From NCBI GenBank assembly GCA_002483445.1, contig DLHY01000065.1, positions 23,336-87,335 of the forward strand: a DNA stretch of 64,000 nt, in the 5' to 3' direction. Positions 23,136 through 46,080 of this stretch are shown here, piece after piece. The notes beneath the pieces were generated by a model, which did no database searches, was not told the DNA's origin, and saw only the letters and a program-made list of their open reading frames with translations. The translations under genes and the position numbers were made by a program. This stretch comes from Blastocatellia bacterium UBA7656. GTDB taxonomy: Bacteria; Acidobacteriota; Blastocatellia; UBA7656. How positions within the stretch are numbered: the first letter of the stretch is position 1; every line of letters begins with the position of its first letter.

Positions 23136-23208
23136 TGAATCGATAACCTCCGCCTTGCAGGTAGAGCAATGCGGATACTAGCACGCGCTTTGAAAGGCGG
23201 GCAACTAA

Positions 23209-23307: not shown

Positions 23308-23315
23308 GTCGTCGA

Positions 23316-26420: not shown

Positions 26421-26434
26421 AACGGGAGATTCTG

Positions 26435-28096
26435 ATGAGCGAAACGAGCGAACAAATAAACAAACCGAACGGAAATGCAGACATCGCTCCGCCTGGCGCG
26501 GCGAGTCAGGAAGAAGCGGCGGCCAGAGAGCTTGCGCGCCGCTACCGTCTGCCTTTCGTCCGTCTCAGTCCCGAAGAGCTTGATTACCATCTCGTCCACG
26601 ATCTGCCTGTAGACCTGATGGTGCGCCATAACTTCGTGCCTCTTCGCCGCGAAGGCGACATATTGCACGTCGCTATGGCTGACCCAACTGACCTCAACCT
26701 GATCGATGAGCTTGAAGCGCAACTTTCGGTCAGGCTCAAGACCGCAGTGGCGACGCGCTCTGCGATAGAAGAGGCTCTCAAGCGCGGAGACACGGCGGCG
26801 CGAATACTTCAGACCGCGACCGCCGGATTCCGCACCGATGCTATGACGCTCCTGCGCGAAACGGAACAGGGCGAAGAAGTACTCGACATCGACCGGCTGG
26901 CGGGCGATGAAGAGATGGCTCCCATCATCAAGCTCGTCGACACGGTCGTACTCAACGCGCTTGAACGCCGCGCTTCCGACATACACATCGAGACGCGCGA
27001 TTCGGATGTGATGGTCAAGTACCGAATCGACGGCGCGCTCTATCGCGCCGCAGACCCGATCGATATCTCTCATCATCAGGCTATCATTCAGCGCATCAAG
27101 GTTATGAGCGAACTCAACATCGCAGATCGCCGCATTCCGCAGGACGGGCGTTTCCGTATGCGGATTCGCGGGCGCAAGATCGATTTCCGCGTATCGATCA
27201 TGCCCACCATCCACGGCGAGAACTGCGTCATCCGTATTCTGGACAAGGAGCAGATCAACGAGTCGTTCCACGATCTCAATTTGGATGTTGTCGGATTCGC
27301 TCCGCAGGATTTGAAAAAGTTTCGCAAGTTCATAGCCGAGCCTTACGGGATGGTGCTCGTAACCGGGCCGACCGGTTCGGGAAAAACGACGACGCTTTAC
27401 GGCGCGCTGAACGAAATCAAAAACGAAGAAGACAAAATCATCACCATCGAAGACCCGGTTGAGTATCAGCTTCAGGGCATCACTCAGATTCCTGTGAATG
27501 AAAAGAAGGGACTGACCTTCGCGCGAGGGCTTCGCAGCATACTTCGGCACGACCCGGACAAGATAATGGTCGGCGAAATCCGCGACAACGAAACCGCGCA
27601 GATAGCCATTCAGTCGGCGCTCACGGGCCATCTCGTATTCACCACCGTACACGCCAACAACGTAATCGATGTCATCGGGCGATTCCTCAACATGGGCGTC
27701 GAACCTTACAACTTCGTGTCGAGCCTCAACTGCGTGCTGGCTCAACGCCTGGTGCGTATGCTGTGCCTGCATTGCAGGCGGGATTATCAGGCTGCGGATC
27801 AGGAACTGGCGGAATCGGGCCTCGACCTGGATAAGTATCGCAACGAGATTTTCTACAACGCCGTCGGATGCGAAGTGTGCAACTTCACAGGCTATCGCGG
27901 TCGAACCGCAATACACGAACTGCTGGACGTGACCGATCATATTCGCGAGATCATTCTTGAGCGAAGGCCCGGATCGGAAGTGCGTCGCGCTGCAAGAAGC
28001 GAGGGGCTGACTTCGCTGCGCGAATCGGCTGTGGCGAAAGTGTTCGCAGGCGTGACCACGCTTCACGAAATCAATCGCGTCACGTTCGTTGAATAG
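26435..28096 (+). CDS. type II secretion / type IV pilus assembly ATPase (GspE/PilB family)
   Basis: N-terminal T2SE-N region (RRYRLPFVRL...), Walker A GPTGSGKTTT, Asp box, Walker B KIMVGEIRD, His box, and a tetracysteine motif (CLHC...CEVC). Confidence 0.94.
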   Translation: MSETSEQINKPNGNADIAPPGAASQEEAAARELARRYRLPFVRLSPEELDYHLVHDLPVDLMVRHNFVPLRREGDILHVAMADPTDLNLIDELEAQLSVRLKTAVATRSAIEEALKRGDTAARILQTATAGFRTDAMTLLRETEQGEEVLDIDRLAGDEEMAPIIKLVDTVVLNALERRASDIHIETRDSDVMVKYRIDGALYRAADPIDISHHQAIIQRIKVMSELNIADRRIPQDGRFRMRIRGRKIDFRVSIMPTIHGENCVIRILDKEQINESFHDLNLDVVGFAPQDLKKFRKFIAEPYGMVLVTGPTGSGKTTTLYGALNEIKNEEDKIITIEDPVEYQLQGITQIPVNEKKGLTFARGLRSILRHDPDKIMVGEIRDNETAQIAIQSALTGHLVFTTVHANNVIDVIGRFLNMGVEPYNFVSSLNCVLAQRLVRMLCLHCRRDYQAADQELAESGLDLDKYRNEIFYNAVGCEVCNFTGYRGRTAIHELLDVTDHIREIILERRPGSEVRRAARSEGLTSLRESAVAKVFAGVTTLHEINRVTFVE

Positions 28097-28180
28097 TCCG
28101 TTGTCATTAGTCCCTTGTCCTTTGTCATCGCTCAATATGTTGTCTTCCCACTGCAAAGGACGAAGGACGAATGAGGACAT
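28096..28180. repeat. imperfect hairpin of GTCCTTT-type heptamers in the GspE-secretin spacer
   Basis: GTCCGTT GTCATTA GTCCCTT GTCCTTT GTCATCG (28096-28130; the first G is the last base of the TAG stop) faces AAAGGAC GAAGGAC GAATGAGGAC (28155-28178). Confidence 0.85.
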
Positions 28181-31356: not shown

Positions 31357-31373
31357 AGTGATGAGTGATGAGT
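31353..31373. repeat. GTGAAGT GATGAGT GATGAGT heptamer array starting at the stop codon
   Basis: The TGA stop of the pseudopilin gene (31354-31356) is inside the first unit. This is the same unit family as the arrays at 31830 and 32260. Confidence 0.9.
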
Positions 31374-31408: not shown

Positions 31409-31828
31409 ATGAAAAGCATTATCAGAAAATCGAATTCTCCGCTGGCGGCTCGGCAGCATGGATTCACTTTGCTTGAACTCATAATGGTGATGACCATCAT
31501 GGTCATACTCGTGGCGGTCAGTGTGAGCGCCTATCAGCAGATTCAACTCAAGGCGAAGGAGACCATACTCAAAGAAAACCTTCGCGTGATGCGGCGGGCC
31601 ATAGATATGTACGCCGCCGACAAGGAGCAGTTGCCGCAATCGGTCGAAGACCTGGCAACGGCGGGCTATATTCGCGCTGTGCCGATTGATCCCATAACAG
31701 ACCAGGCCGACTGGTCTGTGGAGACGGGCGAAGACACTGTAGCGCGCGAAGGCGGAGAGGGAATGGTCGACGTTCGCAGCAGCGCCGAGGGTACGGGGAC
31801 GGACGGCAGAGCTTACAGGGAATACTGA
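31409..31828 (+). CDS. GspG-like pseudopilin (second copy)
   Basis: RQHGFTLLELIMVMTIMVILVAVSV prepilin motif, LRVMRRAIDMYAADK and VPIDPITD. Confidence 0.8.
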   Translation: MKSIIRKSNSPLAARQHGFTLLELIMVMTIMVILVAVSVSAYQQIQLKAKETILKENLRVMRRAIDMYAADKEQLPQSVEDLATAGYIRAVPIDPITDQADWSVETGEDTVAREGGEGMVDVRSSAEGTGTDGRAYREY

Positions 31829-31829
31829 A

Positions 31830-31857
31830 GTGATGAGTGATGAGTGATGAGTGATGA
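31830..31857. repeat. (GTGATGA) x4 perfect tandem array, left arm of a 28-bp inverted repeat
   Basis: Four exact heptamers begin 2 nt after the TGA at 31826-31828. They contain the GTG/ATG start of the next gene. TGA, ATG and GTG occur in all three frames. Confidence 0.95.
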
Positions 31858-32234
31858 GCGGGAGAATAGAGAGATTTGAAGATTTCATCGCGTGGCAAAA
31901 AGCGCGCAAGCTGACCGCTGCTATTTACAAAGTTACCGATCAGGGAAAGTTCTCGCGGGATTACGGACTCAGAGACCAGATTCGTCGAGCCGCTGTTTCC
32001 ATAATGTCAAACATTGCCGAAGGGTTTGAGAGAGGGCGAGCTTCCGAATTCCACCAATTCATTTCTATCGCTAAAGCGTCCTGCGCCGAAGTGCGCTCGC
32101 AGCTTTATGTGGCGATGGATGCCGGTTACCTCGATCAGGAATCTTTCGACGTTTTGCACGAGCAGGCGAAGGAAGTCGGGAGAATCATTGGTGGACTCCG
32201 CGCTTCCGTAGAAAGGAAACGAGACGAGCGATGA
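31854..32234 (+). CDS. four-helix-bundle protein (23S rRNA intervening-sequence / Avd-like family)
   Basis: [13 protein letters not shown]...[50 protein letters not shown] matches the family signature (W-Q-x-A, Q-x-x-R-A-x-x-S-I-x-x-N-I-A-E-G, F-x-x-I-A-x-x-S-x-x-E). Confidence 0.88.
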
Positions 32235-32259
32235 ATGATGAACGGTGAGGAATAAACAC

Positions 32260-32287
32260 TCATCACTCATCACTCATCACTCATCAC
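32260..32287. repeat. (TCATCAC) x4 perfect tandem array, right arm of the 28-bp inverted repeat
   Basis: It is the exact reverse complement of 31830-31857. It ends 7 nt before the ATG of the PilM-like gene (32295). Confidence 0.95.
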
Positions 32288-32294
32288 TTAAAAA

Positions 32295-33468: not shown

Positions 33469-36400
33469 TCACGACAGCAATAATTCCAAGTCTTCGCGGG
33501 CCAGAGTGCGTAGGAGTGAGTTGTCCGCGTTGATGATCGCGTCGGCCAGGTCGCGCTTGGTCTTCTGAAGCTCAAGCACTTTTTCTTCAACCGTGTCGCG
33601 GGCGATCAAGCGATAAGCGAATACCTGCTCCCTCTGGCCTATGCGATGCGCGCGGTCTATGGCCTGCGCCTCGACAGCCGGATTCCACCACGGGTCGAGC
33701 AGAAAAACATACTCCGCCGCCGTGAGATTCAATCCCAAACCGCCCGCCTTGAGGCTTATCAGAAACAAGCGACAGTCCGGGTCGTTTTGAAACCGATTCA
33801 CTTTCGATTGTCGGTCGCGCGTCTTCCCGTCGAGATATTCGTAAACGATCTGCTCTTCATCGAGGCGGCTGCGAAGTATCGAGAGAAAACTCGTGAACTG
33901 AGAGAAGACCAGCGCCTTGTGGCCCTCGTCTATGACCTCCGAAATCTGCGGCACCAGGACATCGAGCTTCGCGCTGGGCTGGGCGAATTTCATTTTATCG
34001 ATCAGTCCCGGATGACAGGCGGCCTGTCGCAATCGGAGCAGTGCTTCGAGTATTTGAATCTTCGCTCTCCCCATCCCGCTCTTTTCTACGAGGCCCAGAA
34101 GCGAACTGCGATAATGATCGCGAAGCTCGTCGTAAAGTTTTCGCTGCGTCTCTTCCATATCGCAGTAAATAGTCTGCTCGATCTTCGCGGGCAGTTCTTT
34201 GGCCACCTGTTCTTTCGTTCGGCGAAGTATGAACGGGCGCAATCCTTTGGCGAGCAGTTGGCGGGTGTCCTCATCGGGATTGCGCGAGTTGCCGAGTTGA
34301 AAAACCGAAGCCGCGCCCAGGAGTCCCGGATTGAGGAATTCGAACAGGCTCCACAATTCGCCCAGATGGTTTTCTATCGGCGTGCCGCTCAAGGCGAGCT
34401 TGTAATTTCCGCGAAGCAGGCGCGCGGCTTTCGCCGATTCCGAAGAAGCGTTTTTGATCGCCTGCGCTTCGTCGAGTATGACGTAATCGAAATGGAAATC
34501 CTTGAAGTCGAGCGCGTCTCGTCGAAGAGTGCCATAAGTGGTGATGACGAAATCGTAATCTTTGAAGTGGTCGCATCCTTTGACGCGCTTCATCCCCGTA
34601 TGATCGAGCGCGCGCAGATGAGGAGTGAAGCGCGCGGCTTCCTCCATCCAGTTGAAGACGAGCGAGCGCGGGACGACGACCAGCGAAGGCGCTACAGGTG
34701 TTCCATTATTCTTTCGCTTCGATTTCTGTTTCGCTCTCATCTCCCTTCTCGCTTCAAGCAGCGCAAGCACCTGCACGGTTTTACCAAGTCCCATGTCATC
34801 TGCCAGACAGCCGCCAAAGCCGAATCGCTGAAGAAATGAGATCCAGCCGAGACCTTCCTTCTGATAGCTGCGCAACTCGCCCTCGAAGCCTTCGGTCGCT
34901 TCCTGAGCGCGGATGCCGTCGAAGGTCTGCAACTCGTGGCGGGCGCGGGCGAACGTCTCATCGAAACTCACACTCGGTTGCGAGGCGAGCAGCGCGTCGA
35001 GCAATCCCGTCTGGCTTCGTTTGAATCGGAGGCTTTCGCCTTCGACCTCTCCCAATCCGGCGAGCATACCGTATTTTTTCAGCCACTCTTCGGGCAATAG
35101 TCCGAAAGTCCCGTCGTCGAGTTGAACGGTGTTTTCACCGCGACGAAGCGCGGCCAGAAGTGTGGGAAGGCTTGCGCTCACGCCTCCGAAATCGACTACT
35201 CCGTTGAGATCGAACCAGTCGATGCCTGAAGTGACTTCCATTCGGAATTCGCCCGGCTGGCGATAGAGCTTGCCTTCGGCTTCGACCAGCCATCCTTCGG
35301 ATACAAGCTCGCGCGCCGCTTTCGGCAACTTGCTCGGCGAAAGCTCAAGCACAGGGCCTACGGAGTAGTAACTGTTTTGCTTGAATCCGGCCCGCGACAA
35401 TCGATCCGCGAATCGCCTCTCGGCATCCTTGTCGCGAAGCATCAGTTGCCGCGTCTCGCGATTGAACAGGCCGTGACTGGCCTCGCTGCGCGAGACTATC
35501 CTTCCGTCGTAATCGAAAGAAAGCTCGCCCCACAGAGTCTCATTCCCCCTGTAAGAAAATCGCGACTCTCCCTTTTTTACTTTCAGCCTCGGCTTGGGCG
35601 TCACCTGGATTTCTTCGAATTTCAACTCATCAGGCAAATCCATCGCGGGCAGGCGCGGCATCTGAAGCAGTTCTTCAAGAAGATCATCCGCATGATTCAT
35701 CGGCGCATAAAGCGCGCCCTGTTTTCGCAAATAGCCTATCCATGGGAATGCGCCGCCGTCATCGAGGCGGGCCACTCGGTCTTGAAAAAACACGAGTCCG
35801 CCCGTCACCATCAGCACGGGCGCGGACAACTCCACGCGCTCATCGCCTCGATGGAGCGAGCCGGTGATGACTAACTGGTTGCTGGCTTCGCCCATTCGCG
35901 CTGCCAGCCTGAACTCCCACCGAGGGCCATCGTCCCACTCTAAAACGGAAGGAGCAGGGTCGAATGAATCACGTCGCAGCCAGCAGCGACCGGTCGCGCA
36001 CATCATCGGCACAAGGGTTTGTTCGAGCGGATGACGGAGCTTGTACCGCGAAGGAGTCCGTGAATAGTATGAAGAGTAGTAATAACCCGACGAGTAGGAG
36101 TCGGTATCCGCGCCTTTCATCAGAGAGAGAATCGAGAGGTCGGACGCAGGCAGATCAGTCGTTCGATCCAACTCGAATCCTCTCGCCTTCGGAATGCTCC
36201 ACTCGCCGTTTTTCTTTCGCGAGCGCAAAGCAGTTTCGACCATGAGGCTCTGGCCCTTGAGCGTGAGATCGACATCGATCAGGTAAAGAATCTCTTTGTC
36301 AGTCGATTCTGCGGCGACCGAAGCGGGAGGAGATTCCCTCAATGCTTTGGATAACTGAGCGAGTTGTTGTTTCCATGCCTGTGGCTTCGGCGGTTTGTCA

Positions 36401-36789
36401 GCAGGTGATGTGGACGCGCTTGCGCGAAACCGCACGGGACGGCTTTCGTCATAGTCATCATCATAGTCATCGTCCTCATCATAAATGATGCGCGCGGGCG
36501 TTGAATCCGCGTCGGAGAGATAGCCGCCGCTTTCGGCTTTTAGCATCGTCGCCCAGATGTGTTTGCAGACCTCGACGTTGTCATCGAAGTAGGGACAGTC
36601 GCAATCGACCACCAGCCCGTTATCGGCGATTTCGAGGTTCACCTCATAGTTGCTCGTGCCGCGAACTCTCGCTCTGACCGAATCATCGCGCCCTTTGGTT
36701 ATCGATACTCTTCCCTGACGGAAATACTGTTCTCCGCGCCCTCTTATGACGCTATCGACGAGTCTGGAAAATTTCTTTGTAAGCCACAT
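33469..36789 (-). CDS. SNF2-family helicase with N-terminal SWIM zinc finger
   Basis: SWIM motif CDCPYFDDNVEVCKHIWA. Helicase motifs LADDMGLGKTVQ (I), ILDEAQAIKN (II, DEAQ), ALSGTPIEN (III), and the C-terminal block LISLKAGGLGLNLTAA...DPWWNPAVEAQAIDRAHRIGQ. Confidence 0.92.
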   Translation of the reverse strand: MWLTKKFSRLVDSVIRGRGEQYFRQGRVSITKGRDDSVRARVRGTSNYEVNLEIADNGLVVDCDCPYFDDNVEVCKHIWATMLKAESGGYLSDADSTPARIIYDEDDDYDDDYDESRPVRFRASASTSPADKPPKPQAWKQQLAQLSKALRESPPASVAAESTDKEILYLIDVDLTLKGQSLMVETALRSRKKNGEWSIPKARGFELDRTTDLPASDLSILSLMKGADTDSYSSGYYYSSYYSRTPSRYKLRHPLEQTLVPMMCATGRCWLRRDSFDPAPSVLEWDDGPRWEFRLAARMGEASNQLVITGSLHRGDERVELSAPVLMVTGGLVFFQDRVARLDDGGAFPWIGYLRKQGALYAPMNHADDLLEELLQMPRLPAMDLPDELKFEEIQVTPKPRLKVKKGESRFSYRGNETLWGELSFDYDGRIVSRSEASHGLFNRETRQLMLRDKDAERRFADRLSRAGFKQNSYYSVGPVLELSPSKLPKAARELVSEGWLVEAEGKLYRQPGEFRMEVTSGIDWFDLNGVVDFGGVSASLPTLLAALRRGENTVQLDDGTFGLLPEEWLKKYGMLAGLGEVEGESLRFKRSQTGLLDALLASQPSVSFDETFARARHELQTFDGIRAQEATEGFEGELRSYQKEGLGWISFLQRFGFGGCLADDMGLGKTVQVLALLEARREMRAKQKSKRKNNGTPVAPSLVVVPRSLVFNWMEEAARFTPHLRALDHTGMKRVKGCDHFKDYDFVITTYGTLRRDALDFKDFHFDYVILDEAQAIKNASSESAKAARLLRGNYKLALSGTPIENHLGELWSLFEFLNPGLLGAASVFQLGNSRNPDEDTRQLLAKGLRPFILRRTKEQVAKELPAKIEQTIYCDMEETQRKLYDELRDHYRSSLLGLVEKSGMGRAKIQILEALLRLRQAACHPGLIDKMKFAQPSAKLDVLVPQISEVIDEGHKALVFSQFTSFLSILRSRLDEEQIVYEYLDGKTRDRQSKVNRFQNDPDCRLFLISLKAGGLGLNLTAAEYVFLLDPWWNPAVEAQAIDRAHRIGQREQVFAYRLIARDTVEEKVLELQKTKRDLADAIINADNSLLRTLAREDLELLLS

Positions 36790-36977
36790 GAATCACCTCT
36801 GACGCAGGCCACAAACAGACATCAAACCAAATTCAGGTTGTAATTTCAAGCTGAGGAAAATTCGTCGCCTGCATTTACATTTTGCCCTCCTGATGGCTTA
36901 TGCTATGGCTCTCGCTCAAGGCGACCGCAATCGCTCTGCGGTCGCTAACATCAACACTTCGCATGAAAGAGGTTTCT

Positions 36978-37565
36978 ATGAAACGAACACTTTTGGCCAT
37001 CCTGCTCATCACGGTCACTGCTCTTGCCGCCGGACAGCGCCCGCACCTTGTCGATAAAGCCCATAGCCAGATCAACTTCGTCGCCGAGGCGAAATTCATT
37101 TCGGCCCACGGGTACTTCGACAAGTGGGAAGCTGAAGTTATGCTTGACCCTCAAAAGGTGGAAGACTCGACGCTCAAGATCACCATCGATGCCGCAAGCA
37201 TAAATACACGGGTTCAGATGCGTGATAATCACCTCAGAAGCAGTGATTTCTTCTCGGTCGAGCAGTACCCGCAAGTCACCTTCGTGTCGAAAAAGATTTC
37301 GAAAGTCGCCGACAGGAAATTCAAGGTGCTGGGCGATCTCACGCTTCGCGGCGTGACGAAAGAAATCGAGATTCCTGTCGATCAGGTCTTCTATGAAAAC
37401 AATCGCGGTCGCTTCCGCAGCGAGTTTCAAATCAATCGCAGGGATTTCGGCATCACTTTCCAGTCCAACTTCAACCCCATCGAAGATATGGTCAAAGTGC
37501 AGTTCGACATAAACGTGCAGGACAAGGAAGCTGTCGAGAAATCCCAGAGGCCGAAATCAAACTGA
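36978..37565 (+). CDS. YceI-family periplasmic polyisoprenoid-binding protein
   Basis: Signal peptide MKRTLLAILLITVTALAA. Also SQINFVAEAKFISAHGYFDKWE, RDNHLRSSDFFSVEQYPQVTF and LTLRGVTKEI. Confidence 0.8.
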   Translation: MKRTLLAILLITVTALAAGQRPHLVDKAHSQINFVAEAKFISAHGYFDKWEAEVMLDPQKVEDSTLKITIDAASINTRVQMRDNHLRSSDFFSVEQYPQVTFVSKKISKVADRKFKVLGDLTLRGVTKEIEIPVDQVFYENNRGRFRSEFQINRRDFGITFQSNFNPIEDMVKVQFDINVQDKEAVEKSQRPKSN

Positions 37566-37582
37566 CGGGAGAGATAAAACGA

Positions 37583-38608
37583 ATGAAATATATCAGCACG
37601 CTCCCTGTCATCGCGTTTGCCGCGATGCTCGCTGCCTGTGTGAGCGCGCCGACTGATCAGTCGAAAAAAACCGACGCTGTTCGCATAGGATTTTCCATGG
37701 ACACGCTCAAGGAAGAACGATGGCAGCGCGACCGCGATCTTTTCGTCAGTCGTGCGAAGGAACTCGGCGCGGAAGTTCTCGTTCAATCCGCTAACGGCGA
37801 CGACGCGGTTCAGTTGCAGCAGGCTGAAAATCTGCTCTCGCAAGGCGTGGATGTTCTGGTAGTCGTGCCGCACAATGCCGAAGTCGCCGCTTCGATAGTC
37901 GAAGCGGCTCGTCGCCAGCGTGTGCCTGTCCTCAGCTATGATCGCTTGATCCGCAACAGCGATGTCGATCTTTACATCTCGTTTGATAACATCAAGGTCG
38001 GAGAGCTTCAGGCGCGCTATCTTTTCGAGCGCGCTCCGCGCGGCAACTACGTGCTGATTGGCGGCGCTCCGACCGACAACAACGCGCAGATGTTGCGCGA
38101 AGGTCAGTTGAAAATACTTCAGCCCGCTGTTGATCGAGGCGATATAAAAATCGTCGCTAACCAGTGGGCCAAAGACTGGCAGGCGAGCGAGGCATTGAAG
38201 ATAGCTGAGAACGCGCTCACGCAGGCGCGAAACGATGTCGTGGCGATGGTCGTTTCGAACGACGGCACGGCGGGCGGAGCGATTCAGGCTCTCGAAGAAC
38301 AGAAGCTTGCCGGGAGTGTGCTGGTCTCAGGACAGGACGCTGATCTCGCCGCGCTGCAACGCATCGTCGAGAACAAACAATCGATGACCGTTTATAAACC
38401 CATTGACAAACTCGCGCGCCGCGCCGCCGAAGCCGCAGTCTCGCTCGCTCGGCGAGAACCCCCCGGCGCAACCTCGACGGTCGCCAATGGTCGAAAGGAT
38501 GTGCCATCGATACTGCTCGAACCCATTGCGGTCGATAAGAACAACATCGCCGAGACGATAATCAAAGACGGATTTCACAAACGAGAAGACATTTACCGGC
38601 AGCGGTAG
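37583..38608 (+). CDS. xylF: D-xylose ABC transporter substrate-binding protein
   Basis: Near-colinear with the remembered E. coli XylF blocks: ERWQRDRDLF, VQSANG, GVDVLVV, YISFDN.KVGELQA, DNNA, SNDGTAGGAIQAL, SGQDADLA, MTVYKPI, IKDGFHK. Confidence 0.88.
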   Translation: MKYISTLPVIAFAAMLAACVSAPTDQSKKTDAVRIGFSMDTLKEERWQRDRDLFVSRAKELGAEVLVQSANGDDAVQLQQAENLLSQGVDVLVVVPHNAEVAASIVEAARRQRVPVLSYDRLIRNSDVDLYISFDNIKVGELQARYLFERAPRGNYVLIGGAPTDNNAQMLREGQLKILQPAVDRGDIKIVANQWAKDWQASEALKIAENALTQARNDVVAMVVSNDGTAGGAIQALEEQKLAGSVLVSGQDADLAALQRIVENKQSMTVYKPIDKLARRAAEAAVSLARREPPGATSTVANGRKDVPSILLEPIAVDKNNIAETIIKDGFHKREDIYRQR

Positions 38609-38610
38609 AA

Positions 38611-38657
38611 GTCAGGGGTCAGGGGTCAGGGGTCAGGGGTCAGGGGTCAGGGGTCAG
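38611..38657. repeat. (GTCAGGG) x6 perfect tandem heptamer array in the xylF-xylG spacer
   Basis: Six exact units at 38611-38652 plus a partial GTCAG. The array starts 2 nt after the xylF TAG (38606-38608). Confidence 0.95.
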
Positions 38658-38689
38658 AAGATACGGGGCTTGCGTTGCGATTCGTTTTT

Positions 38690-40210
38690 ATGTCCGACAG
38701 AAACGATTCTTTCATCCTTGAGATGCGGGGCATCTCGAAAAGCTTTCCGGGCGTGCGCGCGCTCGACCGGGTTTCATTCGATCTTCGCGCGGGAGAGATT
38801 CACGCTTTGGTCGGCGAAAACGGCGCGGGCAAAACGACGCTGATGAAAATCCTCGGCGGAGTCTACCCGCAGTACGAAGGCGAAATTTATCTCGACGGAC
38901 AGAGTGAACGATTCAAAAACGTGCGCGACTCCGCCCGATCAGGCATCGCCATCATCTATCAGGAGCTTTCGCTCGTTTTGGACATGAGCGTGGCCGAAAA
39001 TATCTTTCTTGGCCGTCTGCCTCATCGCTCAGGTTTCGTTCGATGGAACAAACTATACAAGGATACAGACGAATTGCTCGCGAGACTGAATCTGCGCCTC
39101 GACCCGCGCACCGTCGTGCGCAATCTAGGAATCGGCCAGCAGCAGATGATCGAAATAGCAAAGGCGCTGTCCCAGCGATCTGGAATACTTGTGCTGGACG
39201 AACCGACAGCCGCGCTCACAGACTCGGAGACGGAAACGCTCTTCGCCATTCTCAACAAACTGAGAGATGAGGGCGTCGCGATGATTTACATCTCGCACAA
39301 GCTCAAAGAAGTTTTTCGTATCAGCGACCGCATCACCACTCTTCGCGACGGGCGAGTGGTCGAGGCATGTGACACAACAGACACGAGTGAATCGCGAGTG
39401 ATAGCAGGGATGGTCGGGCGAGAGGTCAGCCGTGTTTTTCCTGAGCGCGCAAGCGCGCCGGGTGAAGTGATTTTCGAAGCGCGCGACATAACAGTTCGCG
39501 ACCGGGTTCTTTCTGACAGAGTGCTGGTCGAGCGCGTAAGCCTCTCGGTGAGGCGCGGCGAGGCGCTTGGAATCGCGGGGCTGATGGGCGCGGGCCGTAG
39601 TGATTTACTGATGGCTCTCTTCGGCGCGCACGCGGGTCGGGTTACGGGAGAAATTTTCATCGAAGGTCGGAGGGCGCGCATAGCGTCTCCCGCCGATGCG
39701 ATCAGACATGGGATAGGATTCGTCACCGAAGACAGGAAACGATACGGGCTTGTGATGGATCAGACGATTCTCAAAAACATAACACTTGCCGCGCTGAGGC
39801 GGCTTTCGGGCCGGTTCATAACTCGCCGGGAGCGCGAGGCCGCGGCGGGCAATCAGGTTATTAGCGATCTCAGGATCAAAACGCCTTCGCTTCAATCAAT
39901 CGCCGGGAGTCTTTCGGGAGGCAATCAACAGAAAACCGTGCTTGCGAAATGGCTGCTGACTGCGCCGCGCGTGCTGCTGCTCGACGAGCCGACGCGAGGA
40001 ATAGATGTCGGCGCGAAGCAGGAAATCTACGCGCTGATAAATCGATTGGCCGCAGAAGGGCTGGCCATCATTCTGGTTTCGTCGGAGTTGCCCGAAGTCG
40101 TGGGACTTTGCGACCGCGTGATTGTATTGCGCGAGGGCCGCATCGCGGGCGAATTTGCGCGCCTTGAGGCCACGTCTGAAAAAGTAATGCAATGCGCGAT
40201 GGGAGGGTGA
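38690..40210 (+). CDS. xylG: sugar (xylose) ABC transporter ATP-binding protein, duplicated ATPase
   Basis: Two ABC cassettes: GENGAGKTTLMK / LSLGQQQMIEIAKAL / LVLDEPT, and a degenerate second Walker A (GLMGAGRS) / LSGGNQQK / LLLDEPTRGID. Confidence 0.88.
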   Translation: MSDRNDSFILEMRGISKSFPGVRALDRVSFDLRAGEIHALVGENGAGKTTLMKILGGVYPQYEGEIYLDGQSERFKNVRDSARSGIAIIYQELSLVLDMSVAENIFLGRLPHRSGFVRWNKLYKDTDELLARLNLRLDPRTVVRNLGIGQQQMIEIAKALSQRSGILVLDEPTAALTDSETETLFAILNKLRDEGVAMIYISHKLKEVFRISDRITTLRDGRVVEACDTTDTSESRVIAGMVGREVSRVFPERASAPGEVIFEARDITVRDRVLSDRVLVERVSLSVRRGEALGIAGLMGAGRSDLLMALFGAHAGRVTGEIFIEGRRARIASPADAIRHGIGFVTEDRKRYGLVMDQTILKNITLAALRRLSGRFITRREREAAAGNQVISDLRIKTPSLQSIAGSLSGGNQQKTVLAKWLLTAPRVLLLDEPTRGIDVGAKQEIYALINRLAAEGLAIILVSSELPEVVGLCDRVIVLREGRIAGEFARLEATSEKVMQCAMGG

Positions 40211-40250
40211 TGGGTGTTAGGGGATGGGTGTTAGGGGATGGGTGATGGGT
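40209..40250. repeat. (GATGGGTGTTAGGG) x2 plus (GATGGGT) x2 array bridging xylG and xylH
   Basis: The array starts inside the xylG TGA (40208-40210) and contains the candidate xylH start codons (ATG at 40224, 40238, 40245). Confidence 0.92.
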
Positions 40251-41405
40251 CAGGATTTGACTGAAACGAAAAAGCGATCAGGTGAATTCAATTCTGCGCT
40301 TAGGACTTACTCGATGGTGATCGCGCTCGTCATTGTGTGGGCGATATTCGCTTACACGACTGACGGCGTATTTCTTGAAGCGAGAAATTTTTCAAACCTG
40401 ATGCGGCAATCGACCATCACCGCCATTCTTTCGGTCGGCATGTTGATGGTGATCGTGACAGGCCACATCGATCTTTCGGTCGGCTCGCTGGTGGGGATTG
40501 CGGGAGGAGTGGCCGCAGTCGCGCAGGCGTGGTTAGGCTGGGGGCTTGAATTGTCCATACTCGCATCGCTGGCGACTGCGCTTCTCATCGGCGCGCTTCA
40601 GGGCTTTCTCGTTGCTTATCTCAACATCCCGGCATTCATAGTCACGCTCGGCGGGTTGCTCGCCTGGCGCGGAGCGATCAAAGGCATCTCTCAAGGCAAC
40701 ACGATTCCCGTTCAGATACCGGCTTTCAAATCAATCGGGCAGGGTTACATCGCGGCTGCTGTGGGCATAGCTCTGGCAATCGCGGCAGTAATCGCAATCG
40801 TCGGCGTCGCGCTCTGGCGCGAGCGTTCGCGCCGCCGACACGGATTCGGCTCCGGGAGCCAGTTTCGGCTTGCCGCTCGGATTCTCATTCCTTCGATTCT
40901 CGTCGTCGCTTTGGTTTGGGCATTCAATCGTTATGCAGGGGTTCCGGTTCCTGTATTGATTCTGGTCGTGGTCGCTCTCGCGGGCGCGATGCTCGTCGAG
41001 GGGACTACCTTCGGTCGATATCTTTATGCGATAGGCGGCAACACAGATGCGGCGCGGCTTTCCGGGGTCAACGTCCGCCGCCATACGCTTGCGGCCTTCT
41101 CGATCATGGGCGCGCTGGCAGGGCTTGCCAGCATCATCTACACGGCTCGTGTTGGGAGCGCCGCGCCTGACGCAGGGCGGTTGCTTGAACTTGACGCTAT
41201 AGCTGCGTGCGTAATCGGGGGGACGAGTCTGATGGGCGGGCGGGGATCGGTTCAGGGCGCGTGTCTCGGCGCGTTGTTTATGGCCAGCCTCGATAACGGG
41301 ATGTCACTGGAAAATTATCAGGACTTCGCTCAGGACATTGTGAAAGGAATTATTCTCGTGGCCGCCGTCGGGATTGATATGATTGGCAGACGCAAAAATG
41401 GGTGA
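40245..41405 (+). CDS. xylH: xylose ABC transporter permease
   Basis: TTDGVFLEARNFSNLMRQSTITAILSVGMLMVIVTGHIDLSVGS parallels the XylH N-terminal block. About 10 TM segments. Start choice among the in-repeat ATGs is uncertain. Confidence 0.85.
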   Translation: MGQDLTETKKRSGEFNSALRTYSMVIALVIVWAIFAYTTDGVFLEARNFSNLMRQSTITAILSVGMLMVIVTGHIDLSVGSLVGIAGGVAAVAQAWLGWGLELSILASLATALLIGALQGFLVAYLNIPAFIVTLGGLLAWRGAIKGISQGNTIPVQIPAFKSIGQGYIAAAVGIALAIAAVIAIVGVALWRERSRRRHGFGSGSQFRLAARILIPSILVVALVWAFNRYAGVPVPVLILVVVALAGAMLVEGTTFGRYLYAIGGNTDAARLSGVNVRRHTLAAFSIMGALAGLASIIYTARVGSAAPDAGRLLELDAIAACVIGGTSLMGGRGSVQGACLGALFMASLDNGMSLENYQDFAQDIVKGIILVAAVGIDMIGRRKNG

Positions 41406-41429
41406 TGGGTGATGGGTGATGGGTGATGG
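41402..41429. repeat. (GTGATGG) x4 perfect tandem array, left arm of inverted repeat
   Basis: The xylH TGA stop (41403-41405) is inside the first unit. The array is 27/28 complementary to 41816-41843. Confidence 0.95.
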
Positions 41430-41436
41430 GTGTCAG

Positions 41437-41808
41437 CTATCTTTGCCTTGTAAGAGAATTTCGCAGTGCGTAAAGCTGTTTGGACAAAGAGATCATCTGT
41501 TGTGTGTGACGATCAGAGGTTTCCGGCGAGATGTAATTCAACCGTCTGGCTATTTCGATTTGCGTTTGCAATTCCGACAGAGACCCGATGGCAATTGATA
41601 TAAAGTGAAGATACTCGTTGATGTGTTCTCGCGTATGTCCTTCCGCAATATTTGATGGAATGGATACGGCTGCCCGACGCATCTGACTTGTGAGTCCATA
41701 AATTTCGTGGGATGGAAATGACTCAGTGAAACGATACACCTGTACAACCATATCCATTCCCGACTGCCAGACTCGCAAATCGCGAAAATCATTGATGGCC
41801 ATCTTCAT
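41437..41808 (-). CDS. four-helix-bundle protein (23S rRNA IVS / Avd-like family), second copy
   Basis: FRDLRVWQSGMDM...GLTSQMRRAAVSIPSNIAEGHTREHINEYLHFISIAIGSLSELQTQIEIA. GGGAGGG RBS (reverse complement of 41811-41817). The start is ATG 41808, or 41802 with better SD spacing. Confidence 0.88.
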   Translation of the reverse strand: MKMAINDFRDLRVWQSGMDMVVQVYRFTESFPSHEIYGLTSQMRRAAVSIPSNIAEGHTREHINEYLHFISIAIGSLSELQTQIEIARRLNYISPETSDRHTQQMISLSKQLYALRNSLTRQR

Positions 41809-41815
41809 TGCCCTC

Positions 41816-41843
41816 CCATCACCTATCACCCATCACCCATCAC
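41816..41843. repeat. CCATCAC CTATCAC CCATCAC CCATCAC array, right arm of inverted repeat
   Basis: It is the reverse complement of the (GTGATGG) x4 array with one substitution. It contains the TGA stop (reverse complement of 41840-41842) of the upstream minus-strand gene. Confidence 0.95.
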
Positions 41844-42979
41844 GTCGTATCTCTCGACCACTTTTTGCGCTCCATCAGGATTCGCAATCGGCCCTGCAAC
41901 TCCTCGATCAATGCGCGAGCTTCTTCGGGAGTCATAACCATCCGCTCTTCCCTGCTGAGTCCGCCGCTCGTCGCGCTCATGTTCGAAGCTACGGCGCGGC
42001 GGATTTTCACTTCGATGGTCGGCTGATAGTCCCAGTCGTCGAGCATCGAGTAGACGCTCTCGCCCGCGCGGATTTCCATTTCGCTCTCGCCCACTCTCAG
42101 GCTTTCGGCGTCGCGCCCTTCCCGTTTCAGTTTTTCGAGCGTCTCTTCGATGCCGCCTTTCAATGCTTCGAAGAAAAGCAGATGTCCTGTCGAGAGGCTC
42201 ACTCGCGCCGCGAATTCCAGCCCGCAGTTCTGGCATCGCCCGTCCCACGCATAATGCCACGGATAGCGACCGTTCTCGCTGTGATAATAAGCCCGCTTAT
42301 TGCGCGCCTGGGTGACAGGCTTTCCGCACTCAGGGCAGGGCGGAGCCAGACGCGCCGCGCCGCAGTAGGGGCAGGCGACGAAGCTTTCCTGAATGGGTTC
42401 TTCGCACTCGAAGCAGCGGACTTCCCGCGCTTCTTCCTTAACCGCGCTCTCGGCTCTGAACTGAGGCGAAAGCCAGTCGGCCATCTCTCCGAATACTTCT
42501 TCGGACTCTGACTTGGGCCACACGCCGCGAATGTTTATATCGGTTTGAAGCACGGGCAGGGCGCGCGAGAATTCATCCGCCGTCAGAGTCCACAGCATAT
42601 CGCGGTCGAGGACTTCGACGATGGTTTGATAGGGCGCGCTCTGTTCGCCCGGCCAGCCCTGCGCAAGCTCCAGCAACGCGAAGCACGCGGATGAAGTTTT
42701 GGTGATCCAGCGAACGATGTAATCGACCTGAGTTCCCTTGTCGGGATGAACAAGCTTCAGGAGAGGCTCGCTTTGCTCCATCCATCTCCTCGCTATCGGG
42801 ACTCGCGTGAATGGAGAAACCATTTCGAGCGCGGGCGGAGAGGCAAGCGCCAATCCTCGCCATTCGATATAGACGCGCTGTGAGGCCGGGTCTTCGAGTT
42901 GAACAGGCACGGCCAGCATGTGAGAAAGCCCGCTGCCTATCACCTCGCCCGATGATTGATCGCCCTCTCCGGTTTCCAT
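41840..42979 (-). CDS. hypothetical protein with central triple zinc-ribbon region
   Basis: GAAGGAG RBS. CFECEEPIQESFVACPYCGAARLAPPCPECGKPV...CQNCGLEF gives CxxC pairs typical of zinc ribbons. The flanking domains are unrecognised. Confidence 0.6.
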   Translation of the reverse strand: METGEGDQSSGEVIGSGLSHMLAVPVQLEDPASQRVYIEWRGLALASPPALEMVSPFTRVPIARRWMEQSEPLLKLVHPDKGTQVDYIVRWITKTSSACFALLELAQGWPGEQSAPYQTIVEVLDRDMLWTLTADEFSRALPVLQTDINIRGVWPKSESEEVFGEMADWLSPQFRAESAVKEEAREVRCFECEEPIQESFVACPYCGAARLAPPCPECGKPVTQARNKRAYYHSENGRYPWHYAWDGRCQNCGLEFAARVSLSTGHLLFFEALKGGIEETLEKLKREGRDAESLRVGESEMEIRAGESVYSMLDDWDYQPTIEVKIRRAVASNMSATSGGLSREERMVMTPEEARALIEELQGRLRILMERKKWSRDTT

Positions 42980-42999
42980 AAAAAATTCTCCTTCAAAAA

Positions 43000-43034
43000 C
43001 AGAAATCAGAAGTCAGAAGTCAGAAGTCAGAATA
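43000..43034. repeat. CAGAAGT-type heptamer array (5 units, 3 exact)
   Basis: CAGAAAT CAGAAGT CAGAAGT CAGAAGT CAGAATA lies between the dihydropyrimidinase stop (43053) and the start of the next minus-strand gene (42979). On the coding (minus) strand TGA recurs every 7 nt. Confidence 0.93.
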
Positions 43035-43052
43035 AAACAACTGAAAACTGCC

Positions 43053-44435
43053 TTACTGACCGCTGAACGTCGAGCGGCGAATGAACTGGCCGTCTCCCGC
43101 GCGGCCTGTGTACTTGCCGTCTTCTATTATTACCCGCCCGCGAGAGAGAACCGTCTTCGTCACGCCGCGAACTTTCATGCCTTCATACGCGCTGTAGTCG
43201 ACGTTCATGTGATGAGTTGCGGCAGAGATGACCATCTCTTCCGCGGGGTCGAATATCACGATGTCGGCGTCCGATCCTACGGCGATGGTTCCTTTTCGCG
43301 GGAAGAGTCCGAACAGTTTTGCCGCAGAAGTCGAGGTGAGTTCGACGAATCGATTCACGCTGATACGGTTTCCGACAACGCCGCCGTTGTAGACGAGGCT
43401 CATTCGATGCTCGACTCCGGGGCCGCCGTTCGGAATCTTCGTGAAATCATCCCGGCCCAGTTCCTTCTGCTCCTTGAAGCAGAACGGACAATGATCCGTA
43501 GAAATCACTTGCAGGTCATTTCCGCGAAGACCCTGCCACAACTTGTCCTGATTCCACTTTTCCCGCAGCGGCGGAGTCATCACCCACTTCGCCCCCTCGA
43601 ATCCTTCTCGCTCATAGAGGCTGTAATCCAAAAAAAGATACTGCGGGCAGGTTTCGGCATAAGCGGGGATGCCGACATCGCGCGCATGGCGGACTTCTTC
43701 GAGCGCGTCCGCGCAACTCAGATGCACGATATAAACGGGAGAGTCGGCCATCTCCGCAATAGCGATTGCGCGATGCACTCCTTCGGCTTCTGCTTTCGTC
43801 GGACGGGTGAGCGCGTGATAACGCGGCGCGGTTTTTCCTTCCGCCAGAGCGTTCTTGATTATCTCGTTTATGATTATTCCGTTTTCGGCGTGCATACATA
43901 TCAAGCCGCCCGCTTGGCTCGCCGACTTCATCGCGCGGTAGATTGTTGCGTCATCGACTAAAAACACGCCGGGATAAGCCATGAAAAGTTTGAAGCTCGT
44001 CACGCCCTCGCGGATGAGTTGCTTCATTTCAGGGATTTTTTCGTCAGGCAGTTGGGTCGTTATGAGGTGAAAGCTGTAATCTATCGCGGTCTTGCCTTCG
44101 GCCTTGCGGTGCCAGTTATCGACGGCCTCGACGAGCGATTCGCCGTGATACTGAACAGCGAAATCGATTATCGTGGTCGTCCCTCCGTGCGCGGCGGCAA
44201 TGGTGCCGGTGCGAAAATCGTCCGAGGCGAAAGTTCCGCCGAAAGGCAACTCCATGTGCGTGTGCGGATCGATGCCTCCGGGGATGACCAGACGGTTCGC
44301 GGCGTCGATTATTTTATCGGCTTCCATATCGAGTCGCGCGCCGATGAGTGAAACCCTGCCGTCTTCGATAAGAATATCGGCTGTGTAGTTATCGACCGCA
44401 GTGACGATGTTTCCGTTTTTGATCAGAATTTTCAT
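43053..44435 (-). CDS. dihydropyrimidinase / D-hydantoinase (cyclic amidohydrolase)
   Basis: GGIDPHTHMELPFGG metal-binding HxH motif, FKLFMAY (carboxylated Lys region), ICMHAENG, YIVHLS and ISTDHCPF are all hallmark blocks of the family. Confidence 0.92.
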   Translation of the reverse strand: MKILIKNGNIVTAVDNYTADILIEDGRVSLIGARLDMEADKIIDAANRLVIPGGIDPHTHMELPFGGTFASDDFRTGTIAAAHGGTTTIIDFAVQYHGESLVEAVDNWHRKAEGKTAIDYSFHLITTQLPDEKIPEMKQLIREGVTSFKLFMAYPGVFLVDDATIYRAMKSASQAGGLICMHAENGIIINEIIKNALAEGKTAPRYHALTRPTKAEAEGVHRAIAIAEMADSPVYIVHLSCADALEEVRHARDVGIPAYAETCPQYLFLDYSLYEREGFEGAKWVMTPPLREKWNQDKLWQGLRGNDLQVISTDHCPFCFKEQKELGRDDFTKIPNGGPGVEHRMSLVYNGGVVGNRISVNRFVELTSTSAAKLFGLFPRKGTIAVGSDADIVIFDPAEEMVISAATHHMNVDYSAYEGMKVRGVTKTVLSRGRVIIEDGKYTGRAGDGQFIRRSTFSGQ

Positions 44436-44460
44436 GGCAGACCTCTTTCTTCGAGCTTGC

Positions 44461-46080
44461 TCAAAAATTTTTCGTCAGCCCCTGCTGGGCCGCGATGAAG
44501 TAGAGAAAGTAGTCGTTGAAATGCAGATGCGCAAGCTCCTCGGGAGGAGACGCTGGAGGCGGCCCTTCGATCAGCACCGGCAGGATTTCAGGCGCGGCCA
44601 TTTCATCCCCGTTCTTGCGACGGAGCGCATAGCGCACCTCTTCCATCACCCAACGGGACTGGCGAGCCGACTGAGACCAGAAGAGCAGAAACAGATCGCT
44701 CTCATCGATGTGGCGATAAAGCTCGCGCTCCCATCGCGTGCCCGGCTCAAGCGCCAGCACATCCTGAAAGAAATCAATTCTCAGTCGCGCGAGCATCTGC
44801 ACGCGCTTTAGAACCTCCTGGCGATCCTCGGAGGCATAGGATATGAAAGCTTTTCTGTAAGCGCGCCCGTTGCCCGTGGGCGCGGATGCTTCAGGCAGCG
44901 CGAGTTGATCCCACGCGATAACTTTGATCTTGAATTTGATATGTCCTACGGGGATGGAATCCTGACTGACGGTTACGGTTCCGATGACGGTTCCAAGTTT
45001 GGCGTTGACAGGAAGGATGGCTTCGAATTGAACGGATGCCGGAGCGCCGCGCCATACGAGCGACTGCGCCGGGTCAGCGATTTCAAGTCCCGGCATCGAG
45101 AGATGAAACATCAGTCGCGATCCGCGCCGGATTTCAGTTTCGAGGCTCTTGAACCCGCGCCGCGCGGCTTCGGAGTCGAACTCGCGCGCAAGCCTGGCGG
45201 CGGCGGCGTCCTGTTCGGGCATGTGCGCGAAGACCTGAACGAAAAGGCTCTCGCCCTGCTGCGCTTCTGATCGCGAAAAGACCGTGCAATCTACGGGGTC
45301 GCTCCGGGGGTCTGCGGTCAGTCTCGGTCTCGCTCGCGGAAGCTCTCCTGAAGAATCGTTGAGCCGGTCGGTCGGCGCAACCAATGCAGGGTCAATCGAT
45401 TGGCACTCGTCGAGAGGATCAGGCTGCGCGCCTGAATTTGCGGGCGGCCTTGCGCCGGCTGTTGGGGGTTCGTCCAGTGACCCTGATGATTTACCGCTGC
45501 CGCCCATAGCATTCAGCATGTCCCCATAAATCGAATTAAGCGTCCCTGGCGGGCGGTCACTGCTTCGGGGGGCAGACGCTCTGCGCTGTGTGCCGCAGTG
45601 CGGGCAGAATTTTGCAGCCGCTCTCACAGCGCCCCCGCAATTAAAACAATAGGCTCTCTCGGACACGGCAGGGCGCGACGCTCTTTCGAGTCGTTCTTTG
45701 ATCTGAGCGGCAAGCTCGCGGAGTTGCCACACTGCGAGGTCGGTCAGTGTGCAAATCGGCGGGCCGATAAAAAACTGAATGTTCGGATCGATTACGGTTC
45801 CTGCAAGGCATATTGGGATTACGGGTATTCCATTTTTGACTGCGTACTCCAGTTCGCGAATCAGCGACACGAACTTGTTTGCGTTTGTCGAAAGCAGGAG
45901 CATCATCAGGCGGGTTTGAGACAAAACTTCGCATACGACTGCCGATTGCTCTGCGGTCAGTCTGGTCGAGCCTCGCGGCGCGATGACGCAACTGATTTTT
46001 TCAGTCGCCAGAGCCGCGCTGATTATCTCAGCGATCTCTTTGTCAGAAGGAGCGTGACTGATGAATACATCGTAGGACAT
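44461..46080 (-). CDS. double-TIR-domain protein with central zinc ribbon
   Basis: N-terminal TIR-like domain (YDVFISHAPSDKEIAE...LMMLLLSTNANKFVSLIRELEYA). Zinc ribbon CFNCGG...CPHCG. A disordered Pro/Ser linker, then a beta-rich middle domain. C-terminal TIR-like domain (KAFISYASEDRQ...LFLLFWSQSARQSRWVMEEVRYAL). Confidence 0.8.
   Translation of the reverse strand: MSYDVFISHAPSDKEIAEIISAALATEKISCVIAPRGSTRLTAEQSAVVCEVLSQTRLMMLLLSTNANKFVSLIRELEYAVKNGIPVIPICLAGTVIDPNIQFFIGPPICTLTDLAVWQLRELAAQIKERLERASRPAVSERAYCFNCGGAVRAAAKFCPHCGTQRRASAPRSSDRPPGTLNSIYGDMLNAMGGSGKSSGSLDEPPTAGARPPANSGAQPDPLDECQSIDPALVAPTDRLNDSSGELPRARPRLTADPRSDPVDCTVFSRSEAQQGESLFVQVFAHMPEQDAAAARLAREFDSEAARRGFKSLETEIRRGSRLMFHLSMPGLEIADPAQSLVWRGAPASVQFEAILPVNAKLGTVIGTVTVSQDSIPVGHIKFKIKVIAWDQLALPEASAPTGNGRAYRKAFISYASEDRQEVLKRVQMLARLRIDFFQDVLALEPGTRWERELYRHIDESDLFLLFWSQSARQSRWVMEEVRYALRRKNGDEMAAPEILPVLIEGPPPASPPEELAHLHFNDYFLYFIAAQQGLTKNF

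Follow-up and report, generated by a model that had tools for sequence, protein, structure and literature searches.

The window is the whole 64,000-nucleotide (nt) stretch of contig DLHY01000065.1 from Blastocatellia bacterium UBA7656 that was analysed. It carries two cassettes in which a gene for a small four-helix-bundle protein is framed by inverted arrays of tandem heptamers. The second of these (window 41398-41843), which has the stop codon of a protein-coding gene at either end, is the subject of this analysis. Its features are as follows.

41398-41432, no strand: left heptamer array, ATGGGTG, period 7, 5.0 copies, 100% matches (Tandem Repeats Finder, TRF)
41403-41405, plus strand: TGA stop of the xylH-like ABC permease gene (40224-41405, PF02653), inside the outermost repeat unit
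41437-41808, minus strand: four-helix-bundle gene (PF05635/TIGR02436/NF008911), likely start at the second ATG at 41802 (121 amino acids, aa)
41812-41817, minus strand: Shine-Dalgarno-like GGGAGG, placed between the start codon and the 5' arm, whose inner end it overlaps (read from the sequence)
41815-41843, no strand: right heptamer array, CCCATCA, 4.1 copies (TRF), one unit being CTATCAC
41840-41842, minus strand: TGA that ends the zinc-ribbon gene (41840-42979, minus strand), the co-directional neighbour upstream, in the outermost repeat unit

Within the left array, GTGATGG can be read four times at 41402-41429, and the units at 41816-41843 (CCATCAC/CTATCAC/CCATCAC/CCATCAC) differ by one substitution (CTATCAC) from the reverse complement of the left array. 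These repeats, and the position of both TGA codons inside them, had been proposed in an earlier sequence-only reading of the window and are correct to the base. On the gene's minus strand, the right array is a G-rich 5' arm of GTGATGG units, with its partner at 41402-41430, and the left array is the C-rich 3' arm of CCATCAC units. A repeat finder reports the arms as an inverted repeat of 29 nt each, 97% complementary and separated by a loop of 384 nt, for a total cassette length of 442 nt. In the minimum-free-energy structure of the sense RNA, the arms form the closing stem (-165 kcal/mol, z -6.6). With at most one mismatch, GTGATGRGTGATGR occurs 15 times in the window, compared with 0.05 occurrences expected from shuffles, and a chance origin of the second-cassette repeats is excluded. 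The guanine plus cytosine (GC) content of the cassette gene is 44.9%, compared with 57.6% and 59.2% in its two neighbours.

The encoded protein has 123 aa when read from the first ATG and 121 aa from the second. The second ATG is likely to be the true start, as homologues start there and GGGAGG is well spaced from it. A look-up of the exact 123-aa form gave no match because the catalogued identical protein begins at the second ATG. The protein is a member of the PF05635/TIGR02436 family (23S rRNA intervening-sequence protein, four-helix bundle), which first became known from rRNA intervening sequences, matching PF05635 at 131.6 bits (cut-off 33.8, E 1.6e-38), TIGR02436 at 126.8 bits (cut-off 24, E 3.9e-37) and NF008911 at 140.3 bits (cut-off 137). 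Helices are predicted at positions 6-26, 37-57, 61-87 and 93-119 in its AlphaFold2 (AF2) model (pLDDT 89.4), which in a Foldseek search matches 2GSC (XCC0516 of Xanthomonas campestris; E 2.5e-7, 51% identity) and 2RLD (BT_0352; E 3e-4). Five chains are deposited in each of these two crystal entries, and 2GSC is also matched with phmmer (E 2.4e-29). The closest named homologues, at 64-72% identity, belong to Pyrinomonadaceae (Acidobacteriota, Blastocatellia), and at least 7961 database proteins, among 8000 candidates scored, match at E<=1e-10.

Between syntenic orthologues of the family gene, dN/dS is 0.05-0.11; judging from these ratios, the family protein is under strong purifying selection and hence functional. 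We know of no function for PF05635/TIGR02436 outside diversity-generating retroelements (DGRs), nor of any known catalytic motif in the 120-aa helical bundle. A HEPN-like RNase, considered on account of R-x4-7-H after the conserved NIAEG motif, was rejected, as the fold search gave only family members, Avd and generic helical bundles. With regard to an anti-phage role, PADLOC gave no match for either four-helix-bundle protein of the window or for the zinc-ribbon protein. Three homologues in alignment A1 (P0026, P0053 and P0120) have C-terminal tails, such as NPQPPTPN, that are a translated CCCCAAC array. In these the open reading frame (ORF) runs into its own 3' arm, an arm free of stops on that strand.

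The first cassette is an independent instance with a related unit, as the sequence-only reading had noted, and is made up of three features.

31829-31858, no strand: 5' arm, AGTGATG, 4.3 copies (TRF), directly after the TGA of a pseudopilin-like gene (31409-31828)
31854-32234, plus strand: four-helix-bundle gene (PF05635, E 6.6e-38), its ATG sitting inside the 5' arm
32257-32288, no strand: 3' arm, CACTCAT, 4.6 copies (TRF), with the next gene beginning 7 nt downstream

The arms of the first cassette form a perfect 31-bp stem (fold z -6.4). The two cassette proteins, described earlier as homologous but diverged, are 37% identical. A third, short AGTGATG array is located one gene upstream of the first cassette (31357-31373), and the pseudopilin gene is therefore bracketed by direct arrays.

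The array-gene-array arrangement recurs far beyond the window. In a scan of species-representative genomes 337 relatives were found, and the best 80 were kept (55-72% identity), from Acidobacteriota, Chloroflexota, Cyanobacteriota, Armatimonadota, Methylomirabilota, Desulfobacterota-type metagenome-assembled genomes (MAGs), Binatia and Nitrospirota. A census of paired arms, defined as an inverted repeat between the two flanks scoring >=14, was carried out on 84 evaluable family genes of about 10 phyla, from 115 fetched loci plus the window, with 271 other genes of the same loci as controls; it took in several protein subfamilies, plasmids of cultured cyanobacteria and a real 23S rRNA IVS (intervening sequence). 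Paired inverted arms are present at 56/84 family genes (67%) and at 2/271 control genes (0.7%), with a median stem of 29 nt. The proposal that the arrangement is a recurring unit rather than a coincidence is thus borne out. Across 80 loci, the density of heptamer arrays is 2.7/kb in the 150 nt before the gene and 2.1/kb in the 150 nt after it, compared with about 0.2/kb elsewhere in the 3-kb flanks; an array is found at 32% of the junctions beside a family gene and at 10.6% of other junctions. The distance between inverted arrays is bimodal (658 kb): 12 pairs are less than 100 nt apart, all of them gene-less, 27 pairs are 300-600 nt apart, and none fall between. All 27/27 pairs in the wider class enclose a family gene.

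The arrangement also holds in other protein subfamilies (loci L050, L053, L081, L077 and L084), and the same heptamer units recur across phyla. The Nostoc punctiforme plasmid pNPUN01 carries a cassette of 431 nt with 28-nt arms, and in the Anabaena sp. 90 plasmid pANA02 (L113; NC_019429.1 43089-45833) a cassette with ACAGGTG arms has cas6 on one side and cas4 on the other, within a type I-D CRISPR-cas operon. In a Chloroflexota MAG (L011, 3001-3791), a very weak PF05635-like ORF (20 bits) directly follows the 3' arm of the main cassette, and may be a tandem or decayed cassette. Within the subfamily of the second cassette, the G/T-rich arm comes first (31/32 and 23/24). Stops in all three frames were considered as the cause of this polarity. 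This fits GTGATGG and GGGGTTA, but GGGGTCA, GGGTGTC and GGTGGTG have no stop, and the candidate was rejected. The stop content of the units explains the stops inside the arrays of the second cassette, not the polarity generally.

Units differ among loci (GGGGTTR, GGGGTCR, GGGTGTC, GGGTGAT, GGGATTT, GGTGGTG, GGTGCTG, GGCAGGA, GTCCAAT and TCAGGAG). In the covariation check suggested by the sequence-only reading, the complementarity of arms of the same locus averages 15.3, compared with 8.8 for arms of different loci, and 0/5000 permutations reach the observed mean (p<2e-4). Syntenic Bryobacterales orthologues with the same flanking genes have differing units (GGTGGTG, GGGTGCT, GGGATTT and GGGGTTG), which are matched on both sides. 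Arm similarity rises with protein similarity (rho 0.25, Mantel p 5e-4); the arms thus travel with the gene but change faster than the gene does. Such covariation had been put forward as a sign of selection for pairing. Concerted change of the arms is seen; this is not by itself proof that pairing is selected for, and some of it at least stems from replacement of whole cassettes, as in L042 and L069.

These two Bryobacterales loci (about 2960-3400 in each) have flanks that are 90-98% identical, whereas their cassettes are only 55-77% identical and have different heptamer units. The break points are inside the outermost repeat unit of the arms. Here an allele that is about 35% divergent has taken the place of the entire cassette (allelic replacement). 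A difference in presence is seen at the second cassette itself. The metagenome contig L082 is syntenic with window 36229-45430 and 86% identical to it, but does not have window 41410-41826, and instead carries at the cassette site a 103-nt gene-less hairpin of other heptamers (GGGAACAGGTTACAGG / CCTGTCACCTGTAACCTGTTCCC). Homology between L082 and the window resumes inside the outermost repeat unit on both sides. In xyl loci at a greater distance (L083-L090) the downstream synteny differs and arrays are absent at this site; these loci are of no use as an outgroup, so the difference between the window and L082 is not assigned as a gain or a loss. In the more distant xyl operon of L084, the xylF/xylG junction holds a cassette of the other subfamily, whose arms are (GTCCAAT)n. 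Because the package recurs across phyla and is present, absent or swapped among close relatives, it is a compact exchangeable element and not a coincidence.

Arrays that do not enclose a family gene are also present in the window, and three of them are listed here.

26310-26423, no strand: in the spacer of two convergent genes, a gene-less hairpin of a heptamer repeat (GTGATGGGAGATGGGG...loop...CTCCCATCAC; folding energy -67.6 kcal/mol, z -8)
38611-38657, no strand: single array GTCAGGG, 6.7 copies, at the xylF/xylG junction, which is occupied by a cassette in L084
40204-40250, no strand: single array of about 6.6 copies (GGGTGAT/GGGGATG) where xylG meets xylH, one gene from the second cassette

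TRF arrays are found at other window junctions at 6119, 23207, 28096, 38611, 40204 and 43000. L082 has arrays at both xylFGH junctions (2385-2420 and 3965-4005), with fewer copies and partly different units (GTCAGAA-type); thus the arrays expand, contract and change unit quickly. The spacer arrays at 23207-23309 and 28096-28174 are further hairpins that hold no gene; built from inverted heptamer or octamer arrays, they are 'empty' versions of the cassettes. In other genomes, too, cassette units are found in empty hairpins (AGTGATG in L005, GTGATAG in L010 and AAGGCAA in L019). The array at 43000-43032 (CAGAAGT, 4.7 copies) is just upstream of the start of the zinc-ribbon gene; the unit GTCAGAA is also found in the arms of the pNPUN01 cassette and in L082.

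Cassettes are preferentially embedded in operons, in the sense direction. The upstream neighbour is co-directional in 82/90 cases, against a background of 66% (p 4e-8), and the downstream neighbour in 64/81. The 5' arm follows the upstream stop at a median distance of 4.5 nt; the median element length is 471 nt (typically 430-530 nt) and the median loop 412 nt. In the second cassette, nothing but the array and the Shine-Dalgarno sequence occupies the 31 nt from the zinc-ribbon stop to the start codon, and no promoter or terminator consensus was found in 41300-43100. Co-transcription of the second-cassette gene with the zinc-ribbon gene is thus supported indirectly, by the short gap, by the lack of such a consensus in that region and by the co-directionality of upstream genes.

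The closest known counterparts of the cassettes are intervening sequences (IVSs) of 23S rRNA. The Coxiella burnetii IVS has a length of 428-444 nt, a 28-bp terminal stem and an S23p (PF05635) ORF preceded by two or three tandem GACAGAT heptamers, and RNase III has been shown experimentally to cut at the first repeat (PMC4990558). The cut is thought to remove the ribosome-binding site; the protein was not detected, and the ORF is reported as decaying and unexpressed (PMC4990558). An ORF-bearing 23S rRNA IVS is also described for Leptospira (Ralph & McClelland 1993, as cited in PMC4990558). Among the loci collected here, the Azospirillum lipoferum 4B plasmid AZO_p2 (L116; NC_016586.1 13189-15930) has a PF05635 ORF inside 23S rRNA (tblastn; Rfam large-subunit model at 2140 bits). 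The element is 469 nt long, and its 30-nt heptamer-periodic arms (GGACGGA/TGACAGA) resemble the GACAGAT of Coxiella. L116 is a bona fide 23S rRNA IVS that is not annotated in the plasmid table.

The rRNA elements and the second cassette share a PF05635 ORF in a loop closed by a terminal inverted repeat of 28-30 nt, a similar size (428-469 nt against 442 nt, with a range of about 430-760 nt for the class), arms of tandem heptamers, an ORF in sense to the host transcript and a GC content below that of the host. They differ in location, as the IVS is in helix 45 of 23S rRNA whereas the second cassette immediately follows a stop codon in an mRNA or operon spacer. Arms of the second-cassette type are also cleaner and more variable arrays. 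While the Coxiella ORF is reported as decaying and unexpressed, the cassette protein is under strong purifying selection. RNase III cleavage is experimental for the Coxiella IVS; the second cassette has the geometry of a substrate, with about 29 bp of near-perfect predicted double-stranded RNA. An Rfam gathering search of the window found no family, rRNA included, and a tRNA scan of the window was also empty. As it is not inside an rRNA gene, the second cassette is filed as a non-rRNA variant of the IVS-type element and not as an IVS.

The favoured interpretation, with a probability of roughly 0.6, is that the second cassette is a copy of a widespread, compact and promoterless IVS-type stem-loop cassette, with about 4 tandem heptamers in each of its two inverted arrays, that resides in an operon spacer instead of an rRNA helix. 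The cassette would be transcribed by read-through from the zinc-ribbon gene, and in the read-through RNA the arms would form a helix of about 29 bp closing the 384-nt loop with the ORF. By analogy with the Coxiella IVS, the paired arms are probably a substrate of RNase III, which would cut the helix and release the cassette RNA from the host transcript; insertion inside operons could be tolerated for this reason. A ribosome that terminates translation of the upstream gene at the arm's edge might open the helix, giving coupled translation. The protein may be a pentameric nucleic-acid-binding barrel like its homologue Avd, and spread and exchange may take place by recombination within the arrays. 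We infer the steps of read-through, pairing, cleavage and coupled translation from analogy and geometry, and the mechanism of movement likewise.

Several observations weigh against this interpretation. A detectable second arm is missing in about a third of the family genes, and 3/7 syntenic Bryobacterales orthologues keep the gene but have lost the 3' arm, so pairing is not required for retention of the gene. Arm mismatches on the gene's strand in operon cassettes show no excess of G.U pairs (46 G.U vs 41 A.C, p 0.67). An RNA-level constraint on that strand is thus not visible, unlike in the rRNA copy L116, whose arms have 3 mismatches, each of them G.U on the rRNA strand. Both arms turn over together too fast for point mutation plus selection, so that replacement or conversion at the DNA level is needed. 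The Coxiella model, with its removed ribosome-binding site and undetected protein, sits badly with the strong purifying selection indicated for the cassettes. Finally, the start codon of the first cassette is inside the stem.

The alternative that survives best is a role at the DNA level, in which the arrays act as sites of recombination or as terminal inverted repeats (possibly forming hairpin or cruciform DNA), cassettes are inserted, exchanged and deleted through them, RNA pairing is incidental, and gene-less array hairpins are landing pads or remnants like MITEs (miniature transposable elements with inverted repeats). This is judged unlikely as the explanation, although it keeps substantial weight because G.U pairs are not in excess, the second arm is missing in some orthologues and units turn over in coordination with break points in the arrays. 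It partly overlaps the IVS-type interpretation and may complement it. The location of the break points of both the insertion/deletion difference (window/L082) and the replacement (L042/L069) inside the outermost repeat unit is in its favour, as is the absence of strand bias among the mismatches. The bimodal separation of arrays (less than 100 nt and gene-less, or 300-600 nt and always with the gene) resembles that of non-autonomous and autonomous elements, and the recurrence of cassette units as empty hairpins in other genomes and the correlation of arm and protein similarity point the same way.

On the other hand, no recombinase or transposase is found in or adjoining the second cassette, the sole ORF of which is the 121-aa helical bundle with no known catalytic motif, and its flanks GCAAAAATG and GTCGTATCT share no target-site duplication. 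Many cassettes are stably syntenic across an order and do not hop, and the sense-orientation bias behind the upstream gene, together with the rRNA IVS precedent, favours an RNA role. With integron cassettes, repetitive extragenic palindromes (REP), bacterial interspersed mosaic elements (BIME) and MITEs, the cassettes share a promoterless short ORF with a hairpin-forming repeat, in sense behind other genes, and gene-less hairpins scattered in spacers. They differ in that an integrase, RAYT or transposase is absent, as are any conserved attC-like or REP-like sequence and a target-site duplication, and their arms are tandem arrays of freely varying sequence.

A much weaker alternative is that the arrays are ordinary intergenic G-rich heptamer or G-quadruplex repeats, and that their placement around the four-helix-bundle gene is meaningless. 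Heptamer repeats of this type, which favour four units and form inverted pairs, are known from Xanthomonas and Nostoc (Rehm et al. 2015, PMC4692102), and TAACTGA repeats have been described separately (PMC4679880). Together with the short tandemly repeated repetitive (STRR) sequences of cyanobacteria, these resemble the cassette arms in being tandem heptamers that are found mostly in intergenic positions, with co-directional ORFs on both sides and stops or starts nearby. The Xanthomonas and Nostoc repeats also have a mode of about 4 units, frequent inverted pairs in Xanthomonas and copy numbers that vary among relatives. In XCC0516, the gene of the 2GSC protein, a four-unit GGGAATC array lies over the start codon, 6 nt after bccP (PMC4692102, supplement table). 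Arrays do occur at many other window junctions and at 10.6% of ordinary junctions in related genomes, and (GGGTGAT)n fits the G3N4 quadruplex pattern, for which a preference of about four units is reported (PMC4692102). The studies of heptamer repeats, however, treat them as stand-alone quadruplex or regulatory elements, without a link to PF05635 genes or IVSs, whereas in the cassettes the repeat pair and the gene are one unit and units that are not G-rich work equally well. Four or more G-tracts of at least 3 G are present in the second cassette (GGGTGAT repeated) and absent from the first cassette, L084 and L114. The units of L084 and L114 are not G-rich, and the first cassette has the same architecture although AGTGATG has no G-tract and so cannot form a quadruplex. 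With paired arms at 67% of family genes against 0.7% of others, and with arms that covary within loci, this reading was rejected as very improbable.

Least credible of all, and also rejected, is the possibility that the gene is the Avd of a DGR and the repeats are part of it: it is favoured by distant homology (27.6 and 35 bits to PHROG 3206, 'Avd protein of DGR') and by Foldseek matches to 4DWL and 8UB* (TM-score about 0.64), but NF033474 (DivGenRetAVD) scores 22.8 bits against a cut-off of 80, bAvd PF22296 is below its cut-off for the first cassette, sequence identity to Avd is 8%, no reverse transcriptase is among the neighbours of either cassette, and there is no direct repeat >=40 nt (template/variable repeat, TR/VR) in 26000-48000. 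The neighbours are ABC transporter genes and genes for a zinc-ribbon protein, a dihydropyrimidinase, a TIR protein, a pseudopilin and an SNF2 helicase. The label 'Avd-like' in the sequence-only reading therefore stands at the level of fold and fails for the DGR system. Avd (PDB 4DWL, 8UB7) is likewise a four-helix bundle, a pentamer in line with the five chains of the 2GSC and 2RLD entries, and binds structured RNA next to its own gene.

Two neighbouring genes are possible defence genes. A 539-aa protein (44461-46080, minus strand) has a C-terminal TIR_2 domain with ThsB-like matches and a zinc ribbon, and a 1106-aa SNF2 helicase near the cassettes (33469-36789, minus strand) has strong DpdE/ZorD-like PADLOC matches. 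No link of these TIR_2 and SNF2 candidates to the two cassettes was detectable.

The components brought together here have been described separately, namely the IVSs of Coxiella and Leptospira, the G-rich heptamer repeats (PMC4692102) and the TAACTGA repeats (PMC4679880). In full-text searches, which covered few subscription journals, no paper was found that links PF05635 genes generally to covarying inverted heptamer arrays, and none that reports PF05635 cassettes in operon spacers exchanged between relatives. To our knowledge, heptamer repeats between genes have been on record for 35 years with no mechanism to explain them, and the origin of rRNA IVSs has been open since 1990. The PF05635 family, the intergenic heptamer repeats and the rRNA IVSs are now tied together by one simple, testable architecture, for which there are cultured and tractable carriers (XCC0516 in Xanthomonas campestris, pNPUN01 in Nostoc punctiforme and pANA02 in Anabaena sp. 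90). There is also a warning for annotation, as cassettes inside unrelated operons (xyl, acc, cas, pilus/secretion) can create spurious 'associations', such as '23S rRNA IVP' being CRISPR-linked. Insertion of cassettes in cas operons may explain the presence of '23S rRNA IVP' among the CRISPR-linked domains of a clustering study (PMC10910872).

A wider and more doubtful suggestion, which we put forward only tentatively, is that PF05635 cassettes, which carry a gene, and heptamer hairpins, which do not, are two forms of a single class of small mobile or exchangeable elements that spans phyla and has so far gone unrecognised. In its boldest version, the Avd-like protein and an enzyme encoded elsewhere (for example a reverse transcriptase) may renew or copy the arrays from a short template. 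Such renewal, if true, would account both for the two arms switching unit together and for the G-rich-arm-first polarity. A single element class, if true, would explain the origin of rRNA IVSs and the large paralogous expansions of 'four helix bundle' genes, as well as the abundance of heptamer repeats (STRR, GGGNATC, TAACTGA) in cyanobacteria, Xanthomonas, Bacteroidota, Acidobacteriota and Chloroflexota.

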